A stretch of 64,000 bases of DNA. It comes from an uncultured Fibrobacterota bacterium. GTDB lineage: Bacteria; Fibrobacterota; Chitinivibrionia; Chitinivibrionales; FEN-1185. The DNA lies in contig CAVWBU010000036.1 of NCBI GenBank assembly GCA_963753345.1, positions 1-64,000 on the forward strand, given 5' to 3'. A program made the position numbers and the translations under genes. This document shows, one piece after another, positions 4,398 through 60,071 of this stretch. The number at the start of each line of letters is the position of its first letter. Within the stretch, counting starts at the first letter, position 1. Under the pieces are notes generated by a model, which saw nothing but the letters and a program-made list of their open reading frames with translations, did no database searches and was not told the origin of the DNA.

Positions 4398-4886
4398 ATG
4401 AAACAGCCAGCAGTGACCCCGAAAAAGCCGTCCAATGCCTGGATCTTGCTTGTCATTTCCATCGTCTTGGTCGCGCTGAGCGTCGCGGGGTTTGCGGTAT
4501 TCGTCAATCTCAACCGCACCATCAAGATGACGTCCGGGAAGGTTGTCGACTCCTACAGCAAGAAGGAGTTCGCCTCGCGCAAGCAGACTATTGACCAGGA
4601 ATACGATGTGGTGCAGTACACCATTGAAGGAAAACAATATACGGGAAAGACCGCGGCGCCCAAGACAGGGTATTCCTCCCAGTACGTGACGGTCTACTAC
4701 TACGAGAAGTTTCCCGGCATGGCGTGGTTCCGCAGCAAGAACAACTCCAGCATGGCGTTCTGCTCGCTCTTCGCCGTCGTATCGCTGGCGCTGCTCGCGT
4801 ATTCCGGGTATCGTTTGAGAAAAAATGCTCTGGCGGCAGCAACGTTCAAACAACAGCAGCCGAAGAAAGGTCAGAACAAGTCGTGA
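4398..4886 (+). CDS. Hypothetical 2-TM membrane protein
   Basis: RBS GAGAGGA; two hydrophobic segments flanking a small beta domain. Confidence 0.7.
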   Translation: MKQPAVTPKKPSNAWILLVISIVLVALSVAGFAVFVNLNRTIKMTSGKVVDSYSKKEFASRKQTIDQEYDVVQYTIEGKQYTGKTAAPKTGYSSQYVTVYYYEKFPGMAWFRSKNNSSMAFCSLFAVVSLALLAYSGYRLRKNALAAATFKQQQPKKGQNKS

Positions 4887-51940: not shown

Positions 51941-53098
51941 TTACCCTTCCAGCGTTATCCTCGCCCTTCCCTCGCGCTTTGACCGGTAGAGCGCCTCGTC
52001 GGTCCGCTTCACGATGCTCTTTTCGTCTTCGCCCGCCATTGCCTCCGCGATGCCGATGGAAAGGCTCACCCTTCCGAATTTGAACGCGCCGAACTGCTTG
52101 GAGATACGCTCCGCCGCGACTTTTGCCTGGTTCTTGTCGGTGTCGGGAAGAATGACGGCGAACTCGTCGCCGCCGTAACGGAAGCCGGCGTCGACGTCTT
52201 TACGGATGCATACCTTGATTACCTGGCCGAGCGACCTGAGCACCTGGTCTCCCACCTGGTGGCCTTCGGTGTCGTTGAGCTCTTTGAAGTGATCGATGTC
52301 GATGAGCATGATCGACAGCTTGCGCTGCGGGTTGCGCTTGAGCCGGGAGAGCTCGCGCACGATCTGGTCGTAGAAATGCCGCACGTTGAACAGTTCGGTG
52401 AGGCTGTCGGTGATGGCAAGCTTCGACAGCAGCTCGTTCTTCTTGACAAGCTCGTTTTCGAGCTTCTTCTTCTCCGTGATGTCCTTGGCCGTCACCACGA
52501 GGCCGATGATCTGCTCGGCGTCGTTTTTCATCTCAGAAATGCTCAGGTTGAGAAGGATGATTTCACCCTGTTTGGTTTTCATGGGGATTTCTTCGTTCAC
52601 CGATTTTCCGGAAAGAATGACCGCATTGAGGATCTTGCGCTCGTCGGCTTCATTGACAAAAAGTTGCTTGAGCGGCACGCCTACGATCTCCTCCTGAATG
52701 TAGCCGAAGTGCATTTCCGAGCCTTTGTTGAATTTGAGGATGAAGGCGTCGACGTCGGTGGTGAAGATGATGTCGGTCGAATCGTCCAGGATGCTCTGGA
52801 GATAGTTCGATTTCGCAAGGGTCCTTCGCATCGTAAGCTGGGTCTTCTCCATTCTCTTGACAAATTCCCTGATGTACTTGAAGAAGCCGAAGAGGAGGCC
52901 GCCAAGGAGTGAGGCGGCGAGCAACGAAACGAATGCGGCCCAGATCCATTGCGGGGACTTAAACAGCCCCAGAAACACCGCGAATACGAGAATCACCGCA
53001 AAGCACAATGCTCCCGCAGCGACAATCGTTTTTTGCGGTATACCGCTGTAGTTGTTGTAATTTGGAAGAAACGGCTTTATCAGGTTCACGTTGTTCAT
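51941..53098 (-). CDS. Membrane-anchored PAS-GGDEF diguanylate cyclase
   Basis: 2 TM helices, PAS/PAC (DITEKK), TDSLT, DIDHFKELND, RYGGDEF with RKDVD I-site-like motif. Confidence 0.92.
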   Translation of the reverse strand: MNNVNLIKPFLPNYNNYSGIPQKTIVAAGALCFAVILVFAVFLGLFKSPQWIWAAFVSLLAASLLGGLLFGFFKYIREFVKRMEKTQLTMRRTLAKSNYLQSILDDSTDIIFTTDVDAFILKFNKGSEMHFGYIQEEIVGVPLKQLFVNEADERKILNAVILSGKSVNEEIPMKTKQGEIILLNLSISEMKNDAEQIIGLVVTAKDITEKKKLENELVKKNELLSKLAITDSLTELFNVRHFYDQIVRELSRLKRNPQRKLSIMLIDIDHFKELNDTEGHQVGDQVLRSLGQVIKVCIRKDVDAGFRYGGDEFAVILPDTDKNQAKVAAERISKQFGAFKFGRVSLSIGIAEAMAGEDEKSIVKRTDEALYRSKREGRARITLEG

Positions 53099-54028: not shown

Positions 54029-54131
54029 ACCAGGATATCCGGGATTAAAACCGATTATCAGGATAACAGGGCAACAGACGGCATCACCGCAGGAATTGCG
54101 GTGGCTTCCTGACAAGAAAGAAAGGAATACC

Positions 54132-55940
54132 ATGGATGTGAAGGCGACCGCTTCCAACAAGAAACTCGAGCAGTGGGTAAAAGACATTGCCGGCATGTGT
54201 CAACCTGACGGCGTTCACTGGTGCGACGGCTCGCAGGAGGAATACGACGGCCTGTGCGCCCGGATGGTTTCGTCGGGCATGGCCACGCAGCTCAATCCGG
54301 CAAAGAAGCCGGGGTGTTTTCTGTTCCGCAGCCACCCGTCCGACGTGGCGCGCGTCGAAGACCGTACCTACGTGGCGCCGCATTCAAAGGATGATGCCGG
54401 TCCCACAAACAACTGGATGGATCCCGACGCGCTCAAGAAGAAAATGACCGGTTTGTACACAGGCTGCATGAAGGGCCGCACCATGTATGTCATTCCTTTT
54501 TCCATGGGGCCAATCGGCTCGCCGATATCGAAAATCGGCGTGGAAATCACGGATTCGCCCTACGTTGTGGTGAACATGAGGATTATGACCCGCATGGGAA
54601 AAAGAGTGCTTGACGCGCTCGGCGCGGACGGAGAGTTCGTTCCATGCCTTCATTCGGTGGGAGCGCCGCTTGCCAAAGGACAAAAGGATTCCGCATGGCC
54701 CTGCGCGCCCGATATCGCCAACAAATACATAAGCCATTTTCCCGAGGAGCGGACCATCTGGTCGTACGGGTCGGGCTACGGCGGCAACGCGCTTCTGGGC
54801 AAGAAATGTTTCGCGCTGCGCATTGCGTCGGTGCAGGCGCGCGATGAAGGGTGGCTGGCCGAGCACATGCTTATTCTGGGCATAACCAATCCTCAGGGAA
54901 AAAAGAAGTACTTTGCGGCAGCTTTTCCAAGCGCCTGCGGCAAGACCAACCTTGCCATGATGATTCCCACGATTCCCGGCTGGAAAGTGGAAACCGTCGG
55001 CGACGACATCGCCTGGATGAAGTTCGGCCCGGACGGAAGGCTGCACGCCATCAACCCTGAATCGGGTTTTTTCGGCGTGGTGCCGGGAACCTCCATGGAT
55101 TCGAACGCCAATGCCATGCTTTCCATTGAGAAGAACACGATTTATACCAATGTAGTGCTCACTCAGGACAAAGATGTCTGGTGGGAAGGAATAGGGTTCG
55201 ATCCTCCTGCGGGAAAAAACATCGACTGGACCGGACAGGAATGGGACATGACCATGCGCCGGACAGGCGCGCATCCGAATGCGCGGTTCACGGCCCCGGC
55301 CGCGCAATGCCCGGTCATTGATCCGGCATGGGAGGATCCGCAGGGAGTTCCGATAAGCGCGATCCTTGTCGGCGGCCGCAGGCCGACAACAATACCGCTT
55401 GTGCATCAGGCTTTTTCGTGGAACCACGGCGTTTTTCTCGGATCGATTGTCGGCTCTGAAACCACCACGGCAAACATCGGTGCGGTCGGCGTGGTCCGGC
55501 GCGACCCGTTTGCCATGCTTCCGTTCTGCGGATACCACATGGGCGACTATCTGGCGCATTGGATTGAAATCGGCAAGAAGACCGCGGCCGACAAACTGCC
55601 CAAGATTTTTTATGTGAACTGGTTCAGAAAAAGCGACGACGGCAAGTGGCTGTGGCCCGGCTACGGCGAAAACAGCCGGGTGCTCAAATGGATATTCGAG
55701 CGCACCGACGGCGCGACCAATGCCGTTGAATCTCCAATCGGCTACCTGCCCGCTCAAGGCGCCATAGACACCAGCGGTCTGCCGGTTGCGGCCTCGGACA
55801 TGAAGGAGCTGTTCAGGGTGGACGCAGCGGAGTGGAAGAAGGAACTGGAGGGGATCAAGGACCATTACAGGAAATTCGGATCAAGGCTGCCTGCGGCTCT
55901 TTCCGGCGAGCTTGCGGCTCTTGAGAAGCGGCTGGGATGA
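54132..55940 (+). CDS. pckG: Phosphoenolpyruvate carboxykinase (GTP)
   Basis: [40 protein letters not shown]. Confidence 0.97.
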
Positions 55941-56068
55941 CGGGCTACGATTGTTCACCAGGCTAGGGGTTTATTATATATTAATGAACCAGGCCACAAT
56001 CGCCCTTCCGGCTTGGCCAAAACCATAAAGAAACATCGCACTGCGACCACAACAGAAGGACATGAGCC

Positions 56069-56905
56069 GTGCCTTGGTTTATCAAGTCTAAGACTGCGGA
56101 AAAGCAGACCAAACCGGTCAAGGACGACATCTGGGTCAAGTGCGATTCCTGCAGCGCTCATGTTTTTAAGGAAGACTGGTACAATTCCCTCAATGTCTGT
56201 CCCAAATGCGGATTTCACGGCAAGCTCACGGCGTATGAGCGCATCGGGCAGATCCTCGACATTGAGACGTTCAAAGAAATGTTCGCCTCAATAACTCCGT
56301 CCGACCCACTCTCCTTTGTGTATGCCAAGGGCAGTTACAAAGACAAGGTGAAAGAAACCCGCGATAAAACCGGGCTCAATGAATCGGTCGTGTGCGGCAC
56401 GGGAGAAATCCATGAAATTCCCGTTTCGATAGCCGTAATGGATTTCCGGTTTTTCGGCGGCAGTCTGGGCAGCGGTACCGGAGAAAAGATCCTGCTTGCC
56501 TCAAACTACGCATACGAGCACAAAATCCCGTACATCATTTTTTCCGCCTCAGGCGGCGCGCGCATGCACGAAGGGATCCTTTCGCTCATGCAGATGGCCA
56601 AAACATGCGCCGGCATTGCACGGCTTCGCGAAAAGAAAATCCCCTACATTTCGGTCCTTACGGATCCGACGACGGGTGGCGTCGTTGCTAGTTATGCCAT
56701 GGTAGGCGACATCAACATCGCGGAACCAGGTGCGCTGGTCGGCTTTGCCGGCAGGCGCGTGATAGAGCAAACCATAAAGCAGAAACTGCCCGAAAATTTT
56801 CAGACCTCAGAGTACTTTCTTGAGCATGGCTTCATCGACCTTATCGTTGAGCGCAAGAATCTTAAAGAAACCTTGAAAAACGTTCTCCTCTACTACACCC
56901 GGTAA
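56069..56905 (+). CDS. accD: Acetyl-CoA carboxylase carboxyltransferase beta subunit
   Basis: WVKCDSC..CPKC Zn finger, SGGARM, PTTGGV, GFAGRRVIEQT. Confidence 0.94.
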   Translation: MPWFIKSKTAEKQTKPVKDDIWVKCDSCSAHVFKEDWYNSLNVCPKCGFHGKLTAYERIGQILDIETFKEMFASITPSDPLSFVYAKGSYKDKVKETRDKTGLNESVVCGTGEIHEIPVSIAVMDFRFFGGSLGSGTGEKILLASNYAYEHKIPYIIFSASGGARMHEGILSLMQMAKTCAGIARLREKKIPYISVLTDPTTGGVVASYAMVGDINIAEPGALVGFAGRRVIEQTIKQKLPENFQTSEYFLEHGFIDLIVERKNLKETLKNVLLYYTR

Positions 56906-56929
56906 AAGGTCCCAGCGGGGCAAATTCAT

Positions 56930-57880
56930 ATGAGCGATTATCTTGAATTTGAAAAGTCGATTGCCGAGATGGAGAAAATGATCGAGAAGCTCAAATCGAT
57001 CTCTCCCGACGAGAATCATTACAGCGACGAAATCGCCGAGCTTGAGAAAAAATGCCTCCACCAGAAGCAGGAGCTATACTCCAGCCTCACACCCTGGCAG
57101 ACGGTCCAGATCGCAAGGCATCCAAAGCGTCCCGTGCTGCAGGATTACATTTCGCTTATTTTTTCAGATTTCATCGAGCTTCACGGGGACCGCTGTTTCG
57201 GCGACGACCAGGCGCTCATCGGCGGGTTCGCCACCATCGGCAAGCGCCGGGTGATGCTTGTCGGCCACAACAAGGGCAAGAACGTCGACGAAAACGTATT
57301 GCGCAATTTCGGCCAAGCAAAGCCCGAGGGATATCGCAAGGCGCTCCGTCTCATGAGGCTTGCCGAGAAGTTCAATCTGCCCATACTTTGCTTTATCGAC
57401 ACGCAGGGCGCGTATCCAGGCGTCGACGCCGAAGAGCGCGGTCAGCCCGAAGCCATTGCCACCAACCTCACCGAAATGGCGCGTCTCGAAGTGCCCATAA
57501 TAGCCGTGGTCACCGGCGAAGGCGGCAGCGGCGGCGCGCTTGCCATCGGCGTGGGTGATTCGGTGCTCATGCTGTCGCATGCGGTGTATTCGGTGATTTC
57601 TCCCGAAGGGTGCGCATCCATTTTATGGCGCGATGCGTCATTTTCGCCCCAGGCCGCCGAGGCGATGAAGCCCACGGCCCAGTCGCTTCTGTCGCTGGGC
57701 GTGATAGACGAGATAATTCCTGAGCCCCTTGGAGGCGCCCACCGTAACCACGAACAGACCGGCCAGGAAATCAAGCGCGTGCTTCTCAAGCACCTCAAGA
57801 AACTGTGCGCCCAGTCTGCGTCGAGACTGGTGAGACACAGGTTCGAGAAATATTCAGCGATGGGATTGTTTGCAGATTAG
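56930..57880 (+). CDS. accA: Acetyl-CoA carboxylase carboxyltransferase alpha subunit
   Basis: YLEFEK, ELHGDR, PEGYRKA, GEGGSGGA, SVISPEGCA. Confidence 0.95.
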   Translation: MSDYLEFEKSIAEMEKMIEKLKSISPDENHYSDEIAELEKKCLHQKQELYSSLTPWQTVQIARHPKRPVLQDYISLIFSDFIELHGDRCFGDDQALIGGFATIGKRRVMLVGHNKGKNVDENVLRNFGQAKPEGYRKALRLMRLAEKFNLPILCFIDTQGAYPGVDAEERGQPEAIATNLTEMARLEVPIIAVVTGEGGSGGALAIGVGDSVLMLSHAVYSVISPEGCASILWRDASFSPQAAEAMKPTAQSLLSLGVIDEIIPEPLGGAHRNHEQTGQEIKRVLLKHLKKLCAQSASRLVRHRFEKYSAMGLFAD

Positions 57881-58079
57881 GTGCGCGTTTTTATGATCTG
57901 ACCGCAAAATCACCACAGAGACACAGAGGCCACAGAGAAAACGAGAGCGAGAATCAAGAATGAAATTCACCAGGTGCACCGTTTTTTCAAGGCTTTCAAC
58001 TTCCAACTCTCAACTTTGAACTCTTCTTCTCTCCACGGGGTGAAAGTATTTTAGTTTTTCAAACCAACAGGATACAACC

Positions 58080-60071
58080 ATGGCCGCCATAAAAAAACTG
58101 ACCATAGAAAACAAACTCCACAAGATCCCGCTGCGCATCACCGACACCACGCTGCGCGACGCGCACCAGTCGCTGTGGGCCACCCGCATGCGCACCGCGG
58201 ATATCGAAAAAATCATCGACGTCATCGACAACGTCGGCTATTATTCGCTGGAATGCTGGGGCGGCGCGACGTTCGACGTGTGCCTCCGTTTTCTCCGCGA
58301 GAACCCGTGGGAGCGTCTGAGGCTCATCAAGTCGAAGGCGAAGAAGACGCCGCTGCAGATGCTTCTGCGGGGGCAGAACCTTGTGGGATACCGCAACTAC
58401 GCCGACGACGTCGTCGACCGGTTCGTGGCCCTTGCCTGCGAAAACGGCATGGATATCTTCCGCGTGTTCGACGCGCTTAACGACACGCGCAACATCGAAG
58501 CAGCAGTGAGGGCGGTCAAGAAACACGGCGGTCACGCGCAGGGGACGCTGTGCTACACCATAAGCCCGGTGCACACCATCAAGAAATTCGTGTCGTACGC
58601 GCGCGAGCAGAAACAGCTCGGCGTGGATTCGATTTGCATCAAGGACATGGCGGGAATTCTTTCGCCCATCATGGCCGAGCGGCTCGTGAGCGCGCTTATC
58701 AAGGAGCTTGAAATACCCATCCAGCTCCATTGCCATGCCAGTTCCGGCATGGCGATCTCCAGCTACGTTGAAGGCGTCCGCGCCGGCGCGGGCGCGATCG
58801 ACTGCGCCATTGCCGCAATGGCCGGAACCAGCAGCCAACCGCCTGTTGAGACCATGGCCGCCATTTTTTCGGAGACCGACTATCACGCCGATCTCAACCG
58901 TGATGCCATGCTCCGCGTGCACCGGTACTTTGCCGACCTGTACGCTCAGCGCAACACCGACACGTCGCTCGTGTTCTGCATCGACCCCCAGATCCTCATC
59001 CACCAGATCCCGGGCGGCATGATCTCGAACTTCCGCTCCCAGCTCGCGAAGCAGAATGCGCTTGACAAACTGGAGGACGCGCTCACGGAAGTCACGCGCG
59101 TGCGCGAGGACCTCGGATGGCCGCCGCTCGTGACGCCCACGAGCCAGATCGTGGGGACACAGGCGGTGATGAACGTGCTTTCCGGCGAGCGATACAAGAT
59201 CGTCCCCAACGAGGTGAAGGACTATTTCCGCGGCCTGTACGGCCGCGCGCCGGCAAACGTGAACCCGGAACTGGCAAAGAAGATCCTCGGCGACGAGAAG
59301 CCCATCACCGTGCGGCCCGGCGACACCATCGCTCCCATGCTGCCCAAGGCGACCGAGGGAATAGATCCCAAGTACATCAAGAACGAGGAAGACATTATTT
59401 CGTACTGCATTCTTCCCGAGCCGAGCCTTGAGTATTTCAAGTGGCGCGACATGCCGCCGGACAAGCGTCCCGAAACGCCGGCGGACCTGGAGCTTAAGAA
59501 ACTGAGCGCTGCCGCAGAAAAGAAAACCGCGGTGACAACGGAGAAGAAAGAGGAGGCTCCTTTCCTCGACCAGATACTGCACCCCGAAGATTACCGCGGA
59601 CTCGGCGAACTCCTCAACAGGGCCGGAGGGCTTCGGCTTGACGAATTGACAGTTAAGAAAGGCGATTTTTCCCTGTCGCTCAGATCGGACACCACGAGAA
59701 TGCCTGTAATTCCCAAACCGGTTCCAACTGCCGCTCCCGGGGAGGCTTCTACAAAAAAAGAGGGCAAACCGGCAGAAGCCGGACCCGCGGCCGCAAAGGA
59801 AGAAAAGAGCGCGCCGATCCCAACGGTTGGACCGTCGATCAAGGCGCCTCTGGTCGGCGCGTTCTATTCCACGTCCGGACCGGGCAAGCCGAAGCTTGTG
59901 AACGTGGGAGACGTGGTGGAGGCCGGGACCAAGGTGTGCATCGTGGAGGCCATGAAGCTGTTCAACGAGATAGTTGCCCCTGTCAGGTGCAAGATCCTTC
60001 AGTTCCTCGTGGAGGACGGGACCACGGTGGAAAAGAACCAGCCGCTGATTGCCATAGAAGAATTAAAGTAA
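58080..60071 (+). CDS. Pyruvate/oxaloacetate carboxyltransferase (PycB/OadA/5S-like) fused to an AccB-type biotin carrier
   Basis: LRDAHQSL, WGGATFD, IKDMAG, HCH, PLVTPTSQIVG; C-terminal LDELTVKKGDFSLSL, linker, APLVGAFYS..PGKP, EAMKLFNEI. Confidence 0.9.
   Translation: MAAIKKLTIENKLHKIPLRITDTTLRDAHQSLWATRMRTADIEKIIDVIDNVGYYSLECWGGATFDVCLRFLRENPWERLRLIKSKAKKTPLQMLLRGQNLVGYRNYADDVVDRFVALACENGMDIFRVFDALNDTRNIEAAVRAVKKHGGHAQGTLCYTISPVHTIKKFVSYAREQKQLGVDSICIKDMAGILSPIMAERLVSALIKELEIPIQLHCHASSGMAISSYVEGVRAGAGAIDCAIAAMAGTSSQPPVETMAAIFSETDYHADLNRDAMLRVHRYFADLYAQRNTDTSLVFCIDPQILIHQIPGGMISNFRSQLAKQNALDKLEDALTEVTRVREDLGWPPLVTPTSQIVGTQAVMNVLSGERYKIVPNEVKDYFRGLYGRAPANVNPELAKKILGDEKPITVRPGDTIAPMLPKATEGIDPKYIKNEEDIISYCILPEPSLEYFKWRDMPPDKRPETPADLELKKLSAAAEKKTAVTTEKKEEAPFLDQILHPEDYRGLGELLNRAGGLRLDELTVKKGDFSLSLRSDTTRMPVIPKPVPTAAPGEASTKKEGKPAEAGPAAAKEEKSAPIPTVGPSIKAPLVGAFYSTSGPGKPKLVNVGDVVEAGTKVCIVEAMKLFNEIVAPVRCKILQFLVEDGTTVEKNQPLIAIEELK

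Follow-up and report, generated by a model that had tools for sequence, protein, structure and literature searches.

Four genes lie on the same strand at positions 54132–60071 (+) of the window, by which we mean the whole 64,000-nucleotide stretch analysed here (contig CAVWBU010000036.1 of an uncultured Fibrobacterota bacterium, assembly GCA_963753345.1). The open reading frame (ORF) list and profile searches identified them as pckG, accD, accA and a fusion gene, bearing out the gene order given in a first-pass annotation, which had read the locus as a candidate ATP-independent oxaloacetate:acetyl-CoA transcarboxylase. The fusion joins an oxaloacetate/pyruvate carboxyltransferase to a whole AccB, the biotin carboxyl carrier protein (BCCP) of acetyl-CoA carboxylase (ACC); coordinates of all features are given in Table 1. 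For comparison, 41 relatives were searched in detail, 61 genomes of the same order that were at least 90% complete were surveyed, and ortholog alignments of 20–21 sequences were prepared. The names attached to the closest homologs were Chitinivibrionales, Chitinispirillaceae and Chitinivibrio alkaliphilus (Fibrobacterota), together with two metagenome-assembled genomes labelled Bacteroidales.

Table 1. Genes of the window locus and parts of the fusion protein.
Feature	Position	Strand	Evidence
pckG, GTP-dependent phosphoenolpyruvate carboxykinase	54132..55940	+	NF003253, 971.8 bits (cut-off 504); PEPCK_N and PEPCK_GTP domains
accD, carboxyltransferase beta subunit	56069..56905	+	TIGR00515, 372.8 (cut-off 317.45); N-terminal Zn ribbon PF17848 (Zn_ribbon_ACC)
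accA, carboxyltransferase alpha subunit	56930..57880	+	NF004344, 477 (cut-off 357); TIGR00513, 444.9 (cut-off 319.3)
Fusion gene (663 aa), oxaloacetate/pyruvate carboxyltransferase plus whole AccB	58080..60071	+	HMGL-like, PYC_OADA and Biotin_lipoyl domains
Carboxyltransferase part, residues 18–488 (TIM barrel and PYC_OADA helical domain)	58131..59543	+	PDB matches, motifs, AlphaFold2 model
AccB-type N-terminal segment, residues 502–534 (helix, then beta-hairpin)	59583..59681	+	Alignment with BCCP and TIGR00531, AlphaFold2 model
Pro/Ala-rich flexible linker, residues 535–584	59682..59831	+	Variable among orthologs; low pLDDT
Biotinyl domain, residues 585–663	59832..60068	+	PF00364, 55.9 bits; thumb at about 597–605
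Biotin-lysine K626 of the EAMK motif	codon 59955–59957	+	Biotinyl domain of the fusion

The pckG product, starting at ATG 54132 (an alternative in-frame TTG lies at 54096), is a full-length GTP-dependent phosphoenolpyruvate (PEP) carboxykinase (PEPCK). The spacer between pckG and accD measures 128 bp. In AccD, C25, C28, C44 and C47 were invariant in 20 orthologs, and the mean column identity of AccA over 20 orthologs was 72%.

The barrel of the fusion matched Vibrio cholerae OadA (2nx9, 481 bits), PycB (5ks8, 440 bits) and the transcarboxylase 5S subunit (1rqb, 410 bits) among PDB chains. Against the PycB domain model NF006761, the fusion scored 755 bits (cut-off 402) over residues 18–660, and it fell below both oadA equivalog cut-offs (TIGR01108, 676 versus 756.5; NF008985, 628 versus 718). 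The motifs TLRDAHQS, IKDMAG (K188) and QLHCH (H217, H219), which are taken to carry the metal ligands and the carbamylated lysine, were identical in 20 of 21 orthologs. Barrel identity was 65–93% in 19 of the 20 orthologs compared; the exception was the ortholog of genome G010 (47%), the only one in which the barrel was not better conserved than the tail. The AlphaFold2 model of the fusion had a mean predicted local distance difference test (pLDDT) score of 75, with the barrel and helical domain predicted confidently.

The C-terminal part of the protein, which the first-pass annotation had taken for a whole AccB of about 170 residues, was confirmed as such over its last 155–170 residues. Residues 508–660 matched positions 6–155 of the 156 positions of the whole-protein AccB model TIGR00531 (104 bits, E 1e-29); this is just below the cut-off of 115.2, which the orthologous tail exceeded in 16 of 41 relatives. 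In a phmmer search against PDB chains, the alignment of the tail with full-length Escherichia coli BCCP (4hr7_B, 60 bits) began in the N-terminal segment and ran to the C-terminus, and the stretch from the FY motif through EAMK, which includes the thumb, was ungapped. Lower scores were obtained with other carriers (PycB 5ks8, 24 bits; 1.3S subunit of transcarboxylase, 29 bits). The N-terminal segment kept the pattern DY.G..LL...G...E....KGDF in 21 orthologs, and VEAMKL was invariant in 21/21, while the linker differed in sequence and length. The model placed a helix at residues 502–515 and strands forming a hairpin at 523–534 (pLDDT about 60), followed by a disordered stretch at 539–583 (pLDDT about 30) and a well-folded biotinyl domain. 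The thumb residues were as in free AccBs and were missing from the OadA2 and pyruvate carboxylase (PYC) carriers of the same order.

A maximum-likelihood tree was constructed from 39 biotinyl domains, including 21 fusion tails, 12 free AccBs of the phylum and OadA2/PYC carriers. AccB-type carriers were split from the OadA2/PYC carriers of the order with a support of 100/98, and the 21 tails formed one clade (100/98) nested among the free AccBs of the phylum. The deeper branching of this tree is soft because the domain is short; the thumb insertion, a character independent of the tree, points the same way. Profile scores, PDB scores and tree thus all placed the biotinyl domain with AccB and not with PycB/OadA, settling a comparison that the first-pass annotation had proposed. 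Elsewhere in the phylum, matches to the tail were free AccB-sized frames (154–277 aa, mostly 160–210) or small proteins of about 130 aa; no conclusion here relies on one of these rows (genome G175, unpublished).

The source assembly (4.52 Mb in 55 contigs, 94.26% complete, 4.79% contaminated; the window belongs to contig C36) contained no match to the biotin carboxylase domain PF02785 (Biotin_carb_C) and none to OadB (PF03977, OAD_beta). The accC model TIGR00514 retrieved only CarB-like (two contigs) and PurD-like matches from the whole assembly, at 31–67 bits. Tblastn searches of the assembly with three AccC proteins from the same order returned CarB alone at about 25% identity, a search with one OadB from the order returned nothing, and a search with one free AccB from the phylum found the fusion tail. 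The lack of biotin carboxylase and oadB, which the first-pass annotation had noted for the window, therefore extends to the whole genome, where AccC, PycA and OadB were all missing; oadG was not searched for. The two carB matches (C15:90288–95666 and C55:1388–6766) were equally spaced and scored 66.6 bits each, with second-domain scores of 43.7 and 43.9 bits, and probably represent a duplicated or redundant region of the assembly.

The other components of such a system each occurred once. The fusion was the sole PYC_OADA match and the sole biotin-type carrier of the genome, accD–accA the sole PF01039 (Carboxyl_trans) locus, and pckG the sole PEPCK_GTP match. No 12S-type carboxyltransferase was called with TIGR01117 (mmdA; 59 bits versus a cut-off of 998.8), and profile searches of the genome detected no PEPCK_ATP and no PF00311-type PEP carboxylase. 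Both fabD (329.9 bits, cut-off 260.9) and birA were present. The remaining PF00364 matches were lipoyl-type: one is the lipoyl domain in the E2 component of a 2-oxoacid dehydrogenase, the other is attached to a FabH-like protein. The latter was considered as a free BCCP and rejected, since it carries a lipoyl-type ESAKA motif. Its architecture is odd in itself: in the 440-aa product of C49:94478–95863 (+) (locus L008:1468–2790), the lipoyl-type domain (44.8 bits) and a Pro/Ala linker precede a FabH/KAS III-like protein.

With fabD and birA present, the organism would require malonyl-CoA and biotinylate some protein. Its biotin carrier, its keto-acid carboxyltransferase and its acyl-CoA carboxyltransferase are each the only one of their kind, neither biotin carboxylase nor OadB is present, and the system is closed. 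As far as its gene content indicates, the source genome has no known way of carboxylating biotin by ATP or by a Na+ gradient. Given this closed inventory, oxaloacetate decarboxylation on the fused barrel would be the only route to carboxybiotin, and AccA/AccD its only consumer.

The same constellation was found across the order. A full-length fusion was present in 41/41 relatives and in 61/61 of the order genomes at least 90% complete, as well as in G041, a genome from a neighbouring order. Its tail was the best TIGR00531 match in all 41 genomes searched, and no free full-length AccB was found in them with this model, so that the tail is their sole full AccB. Biotin_carb_C was missing from 27 of the 41 relatives and from 44 of the 61 order genomes. 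None of the eight genomes of the source family had a biotin carboxylase, some of the other seven being 98–99% complete, and the absence was consistent by genus (g1, 0/4 plus the source genome; g22, 0/6; g7, 0/4; g30, 0/5; g31, 0/3; g11, 0/3; g16, 0/3). Genomes without the enzyme included ones that are 98–100% complete. Such genus-consistent absences, near-complete genomes included, rule out chance loss in assembly.

The other 17 of the 61 genomes carried a free-standing accC at equivalog level (710–723 bits, cut-off 626.5). Neither accB nor a carboxyltransferase gene adjoined accC in the three complete accC loci examined. In these genomes, the fusion must serve as the AccB for AccC. The N-terminal segment, linker and thumb were conserved equally in genomes with and without accC, and the N-terminal segment and thumb are, judging from these comparisons, inherited from a resident AccB and no adaptation to transcarboxylation or to a new partner. 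The first-pass annotation had read the AccB-type tail as part of an ATP-free enzyme. Its identification of the tail stands; the features themselves are ancestral and equally kept in the accC-bearing relatives, so the fusion alone is no sign of ATP independence. The loss of accC is.

The state of the barrel differed in two accC-bearing genomes. In G010 (L041, contig G010:C20, L041:7004–8923), the barrel of the ortholog is degenerate (K188N, H29N, altered GGMISN and TPTSQ) and the AccB tail is retained. In G008 (L071, contig G008:C3), an in-frame TAA at locus position 4681, at about residue 400, leaves a 267-aa C-terminal frame with the AccB tail; the gene could be truly split or a pseudogene, or the stop could stem from a sequencing error. 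The catalytic motifs of the barrel were intact in 12/12 examined genomes without biotin carboxylase. The pattern fits a barrel that would be indispensable only where accC has been lost, with two cases to go by, one of them possibly a sequencing error.

The genes accD, accA and fusion were contiguous in 19 of 20 relatives' loci, the exception being G021. GTP-PEPCK was found in 37 of the 61 order genomes and ATP-PEPCK above cut-off in 0/61. In 28 of the 37 PEPCK-bearing genomes, the gene shared contig and strand with the fusion tail and lay at most 6 kb from it; in linked loci its position was just upstream of accD–accA–fusion. Four of the nine genomes without linkage had one or both genes on short contigs or at the edge of a contig. 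Two relatives, G029 (L028:10958–13096 (−)) and G014 (L035), had upstream of accD a distant GTP-PEPCK paralog of about 710 aa with an N-terminal extension, 31% identical to the window PckG. Its occurrence at the same position indicates that more than one kind of PEPCK gene has come to lie ahead of accD. Where relatives lack pckG, accD is preceded by unrelated genes, which encode hybrid histidine kinases and tetratricopeptide repeat (TPR), ApbE, PAC2 and PAS-GGDEF proteins. The synteny that the first-pass annotation had suggested surveying is thus conserved for accD–accA–fusion; the partnership with pckG is frequent and not universal, PEPCK also being missing from 13 of the 44 genomes that lack biotin carboxylase.

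Among the 61 genomes, accC and PEPCK were largely complementary: 11 had accC only, 31 PEPCK only, six both and 13 neither. An accC was present in 2 of the 28 genomes with an operon-linked PEPCK versus 15 of the 33 others, and the pattern recurred across genera within one family (f5).

The genes flanking the window locus are unrelated to it. Downstream are an OmpA-like gene and genes of unknown function, and upstream, on the other strand, is a PAS-GGDEF diguanylate cyclase gene (51941–53098 (−)). A gene of this type is likewise found on the opposite strand upstream of the locus in the relative G017 (L032:3074–4276 (−)).

We consider it probable, from gene content and comparison across the order, that AccD, AccA and the fusion constitute a natural oxaloacetate:acetyl-CoA transcarboxylase that replaces ATP-dependent ACC, with PckG supplying the oxaloacetate, and that this is the only route to malonyl-CoA in the source genome. 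In the proposed mechanism, PckG would convert PEP, CO2 and GDP to oxaloacetate and GTP. The OadA/5S-type barrel would then take CO2 from oxaloacetate, free pyruvate and carboxylate the biotin on K626 of its own tail. The Pro/Ala arm of about 50 residues would swing the carboxybiotin to the active site of AccA/AccD, where acetyl-CoA would be carboxylated to malonyl-CoA with neither biotin carboxylase nor ATP. The net reaction would be PEP + CO2 + GDP + acetyl-CoA → pyruvate + GTP + malonyl-CoA, and the CO2 would be freed again in the FabH/FabF condensations. By textbook values, the net reaction is near equilibrium; the decarboxylative condensations of type II fatty-acid synthesis (FAS II) would draw it in the forward direction. 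Relative to pyruvate kinase combined with ACC, one ATP equivalent would be saved per C2 unit. The chemistry has a precedent: according to the retrieved passages of a review (PMC8085960, citing Swick and Wood 1960), oxaloacetate–acetyl-CoA transcarboxylation is chemically established as a side reaction of Propionibacterium transcarboxylase. We infer that the proteins form a complex, that flux runs in the direction of malonyl-CoA and that PckG is the main source of oxaloacetate.

As to its origin, the resident AccB would have become joined to a pyruvate/oxaloacetate carboxyltransferase in the ancestor of the order, creating one biotin hub for three sites (AccC, the keto-acid carboxyltransferase and AccA/AccD). 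Most lineages, including that of the source genome, would later have lost accC. We lean towards the view that most of the order (Chitinivibrionales by homolog names) has abandoned ATP-dependent acetyl-CoA carboxylation, that a transcarboxylase of AccA, AccD and the fusion feeds FAS II, and that AccC (with ATP) and PckG (with PEP) are interchangeable carboxyl donors to this one hub. With two corrections, concerning the tail and the pckG partnership as described above, the transcarboxylase interpretation of the first-pass annotation is supported by the sequence comparisons; the computational checks that it had named as possible refutations all turned out in favour of it.

The alternative that survives best is a conventional ATP-dependent ACC whose biotin carboxylase is unassembled, mis-binned or non-homologous, the barrel having a PycB role or being vestigial. 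We regard it as unlikely. It can point to the 17 of 61 relatives in which accC occurs without an adjoining accB and the fusion acts as AccB, and to a source genome that is 94% complete. Its best argument is that the N-terminal segment and thumb are kept in lineages without biotin carboxylase. Against this, PF02785 is absent from the source genome and the seven other genomes of its family, some of them 98–99% complete, the absence in 44/61 genomes is consistent by genus, and tblastn with the order's own AccC found only CarB. We know of no non-homologous biotin carboxylase. A vestigial barrel is at odds with the catalytic motifs being intact in all 12 examined genomes without the enzyme.

A reverse or catabolic role, in which the proteins act as a malonyl-CoA:pyruvate transcarboxylase or a soluble oxaloacetate/malonyl-CoA decarboxylase and the malonyl-CoA for lipids comes from elsewhere, appears quite improbable. 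AccA/AccD-like carboxyltransferases serve the malonate decarboxylase of Malonomonas, which counts for such a role. So does the near-equilibrium position of transcarboxylation by EC 2.1.3.1, for which the retrieved part of the review gives a ΔG0′ of −2 ± 10 kJ/mol (PMC8085960). On the other hand, both accD and accA exceed the cut-offs of the ACC equivalog models, and together they encode the sole acyl-CoA carboxyltransferase of a genome that has fabD, and no other source of malonyl-CoA was seen, MatB and malonate CoA-transferase not having been searched for. Linkage to the oxaloacetate-making pckG also argues that oxaloacetate is the donor.

It is hardly credible that the fusion serves as alpha subunit in a Na+-pumping oxaloacetate decarboxylase, making up with PckG an energy-conserving path from PEP to pyruvate, with the accDA linkage incidental. 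In favour of this role, V. cholerae OadA is the best structural relative of the barrel (481 bits), the Joint Genome Institute (JGI) calls homologs 'oxaloacetate decarboxylase alpha subunit', OadB is above cut-off in 23/61 order genomes, and the Chitinispirillum genome paper, in its retrieved text, lists such a Na+-pumping enzyme among the predictions for that class (PMC4814513). Against it, no OadB is above cut-off in the source genome and in 38/61 order genomes, the fusion stays below TIGR01108 (676 < 756.5) and its carrier is AccB-type. The fusion was also considered as the alpha subunit for the OadB of the order and rejected, since in all nine genomes checked OadB has an OadA2 of its own next to it, a protein of about 600 aa whose carrier lacks the thumb.

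Several observations weigh against the transcarboxylase reading itself. Despite the loss of accC, the N-terminal segment and thumb of AccB have remained fully conserved. In E. coli, these two elements have been linked to the interaction of AccB with AccC, and a partner that we did not recognise could still use them. The source genome is 94% complete with 4.8% contamination, and most relatives are multi-contig assemblies. As the relatives are not independent, the complementary pattern of accC and PEPCK, given here as counts without a statistic, reflects relatively few evolutionary events. Seven of the 13 genomes that lack both accC and PEPCK have OadB. The other six (G011, G019, G021, G025, G050 and G051; 6/61) have the fusion and none of biotin carboxylase, PEPCK and OadB, so that PckG cannot be the general source of oxaloacetate. 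G021 has a PEP carboxylase, and malic enzyme was found in four of the five others searched (G011, G019, G025 and G051, not G050).

Expression of the four genes as a unit is likewise an assumption. The accA–fusion spacer (57881–58079) measures 199 bp, compared with about 20–150 bp in relatives, and contains a weak sigma-70-like site (57869–57897). A promoter scan of the region gave three promoter-like sites versus 2.8 expected from shuffled sequence, i.e. no excess, and a terminator scan revealed no convincing terminator between the locus genes. Because of the long spacer, the weak site and the lack of an excess over shuffled sequence, co-transcription is assumed only. A search of sequencing runs located the locus in DNA contigs from peat, freshwater-sediment and soil metagenomes, and no RNA run was listed. 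A complex prediction for AccD, AccA and the tail, entered as alignments, scored 0.01 against a mark of 0.32; lacking its controls, this score counts neither for nor against a complex.

To our knowledge, ATP-dependent acetyl-CoA carboxylation is treated as the universal committed step of bacterial fatty-acid synthesis, and the finding questions this universality. If the reading is true, a free-living lineage with FAS II, AccA and AccD but no biotin carboxylase shows that the step can be driven by PEP via oxaloacetate. A fermenter would save one ATP equivalent per C2 unit by this route, and the version with PckG would gain one GTP per malonyl-CoA instead of spending one ATP. It would be the first natural transcarboxylase to replace ACC and a ready-made design for ATP-free malonyl-CoA supply, i.e. 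a natural, co-evolved enzyme for a route that the engineering literature has considered solely as a side reaction of Propionibacterium transcarboxylase. In the retrieved part of their text, the authors of the review state that, to their knowledge, such energy conservation has not yet been used in pathway design (PMC8085960). No natural oxaloacetate:acetyl-CoA transcarboxylase and no ACC without biotin carboxylase was found in the open-access PMC and bioRxiv literature, subscription journals and supplements being outside the scope of the search.

The order supplies its own natural controls, namely sister genera with accC, pckG, both or neither and two accC-bearing genomes with a decaying barrel, which make the hypothesis directly testable. 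Annotators should be cautious, as source records list homologs of the fusion under three names: 'oxaloacetate decarboxylase alpha', 'pyruvate carboxylase subunit B' and 'AccB'.

Bacteria that lack biotin carboxylase and yet need malonyl-CoA may also exist beyond this order. Lombard and Moreira (2011) reported ACC-type biotin carboxylase to be absent in Thermotogales and Spirochaetes, and Fibrobacteres are unmentioned in the part of their paper retrieved (PMC3199775). Thermotoga maritima was the only one of our 14 control genomes without Biotin_carb_C; it had matches to fabD, Carboxyl_trans, PYC_OADA and OAD_beta. In the retrieved text of the Chitinispirillum genome paper, biotin is not mentioned, and 'carboxylase' otherwise occurs once, in 'pyruvate carboxylase' (PMC4814513).

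Among known systems, the PycA/PycB pyruvate carboxylase of Methylobacillus flagellatus (5ks8) and V. cholerae OadA (2nx9) share with the fusion the barrel and PYC_OADA domain (440 and 481 bits) and a C-terminal biotinyl domain after a Pro/Ala linker. Their carriers differ from that of the fusion in having neither the thumb nor the AccB N-terminal segment (24 bits for the 5ks8 carrier), and they need PycA or OadB/OadG, of which PycA and OadB are absent from the source genome (oadG not searched). ACC of the E. coli type (AccABCD) resembles the window system in AccA and AccD, both at equivalog level, in the Zn ribbon of AccD and in the architecture and clade of AccB. It differs in that AccC is absent from the source genome and from 44/61 order genomes, and in that AccB is not free-standing here but fused C-terminally to a carboxyltransferase. 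The anaerobe Giardia intestinalis reportedly has a fused transcarboxylase, said to have been described by Jordan et al. in 2003, as a further example of fusion and fission among carboxyltransferase and BCCP modules; the carboxyltransferase of that protein is reportedly of the 12S type and not the AccA/AccD type. The transcarboxylase of Propionibacterium shermanii (methylmalonyl-CoA carboxytransferase, EC 2.1.3.1; 12S, 5S and 1.3S subunits) is, like the proposed enzyme, a biotin enzyme without biotin carboxylase, in which a swinging biotin couples a keto-acid carboxyltransferase (5S; 410 bits between the window barrel and 1rqb) to an acyl-CoA carboxyltransferase. Its CoA side is a 12S hexamer, whereas the window locus encodes the split AccA/AccD of a fatty-acid ACC, and the carrier in the window is a full AccB (60 bits with BCCP, 29 bits with 1.3S) fused in cis to the 5S-type part. 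Unlike the Propionibacterium enzyme, which serves propionate fermentation, the window system would have an anabolic role, providing malonyl-CoA for FAS II.

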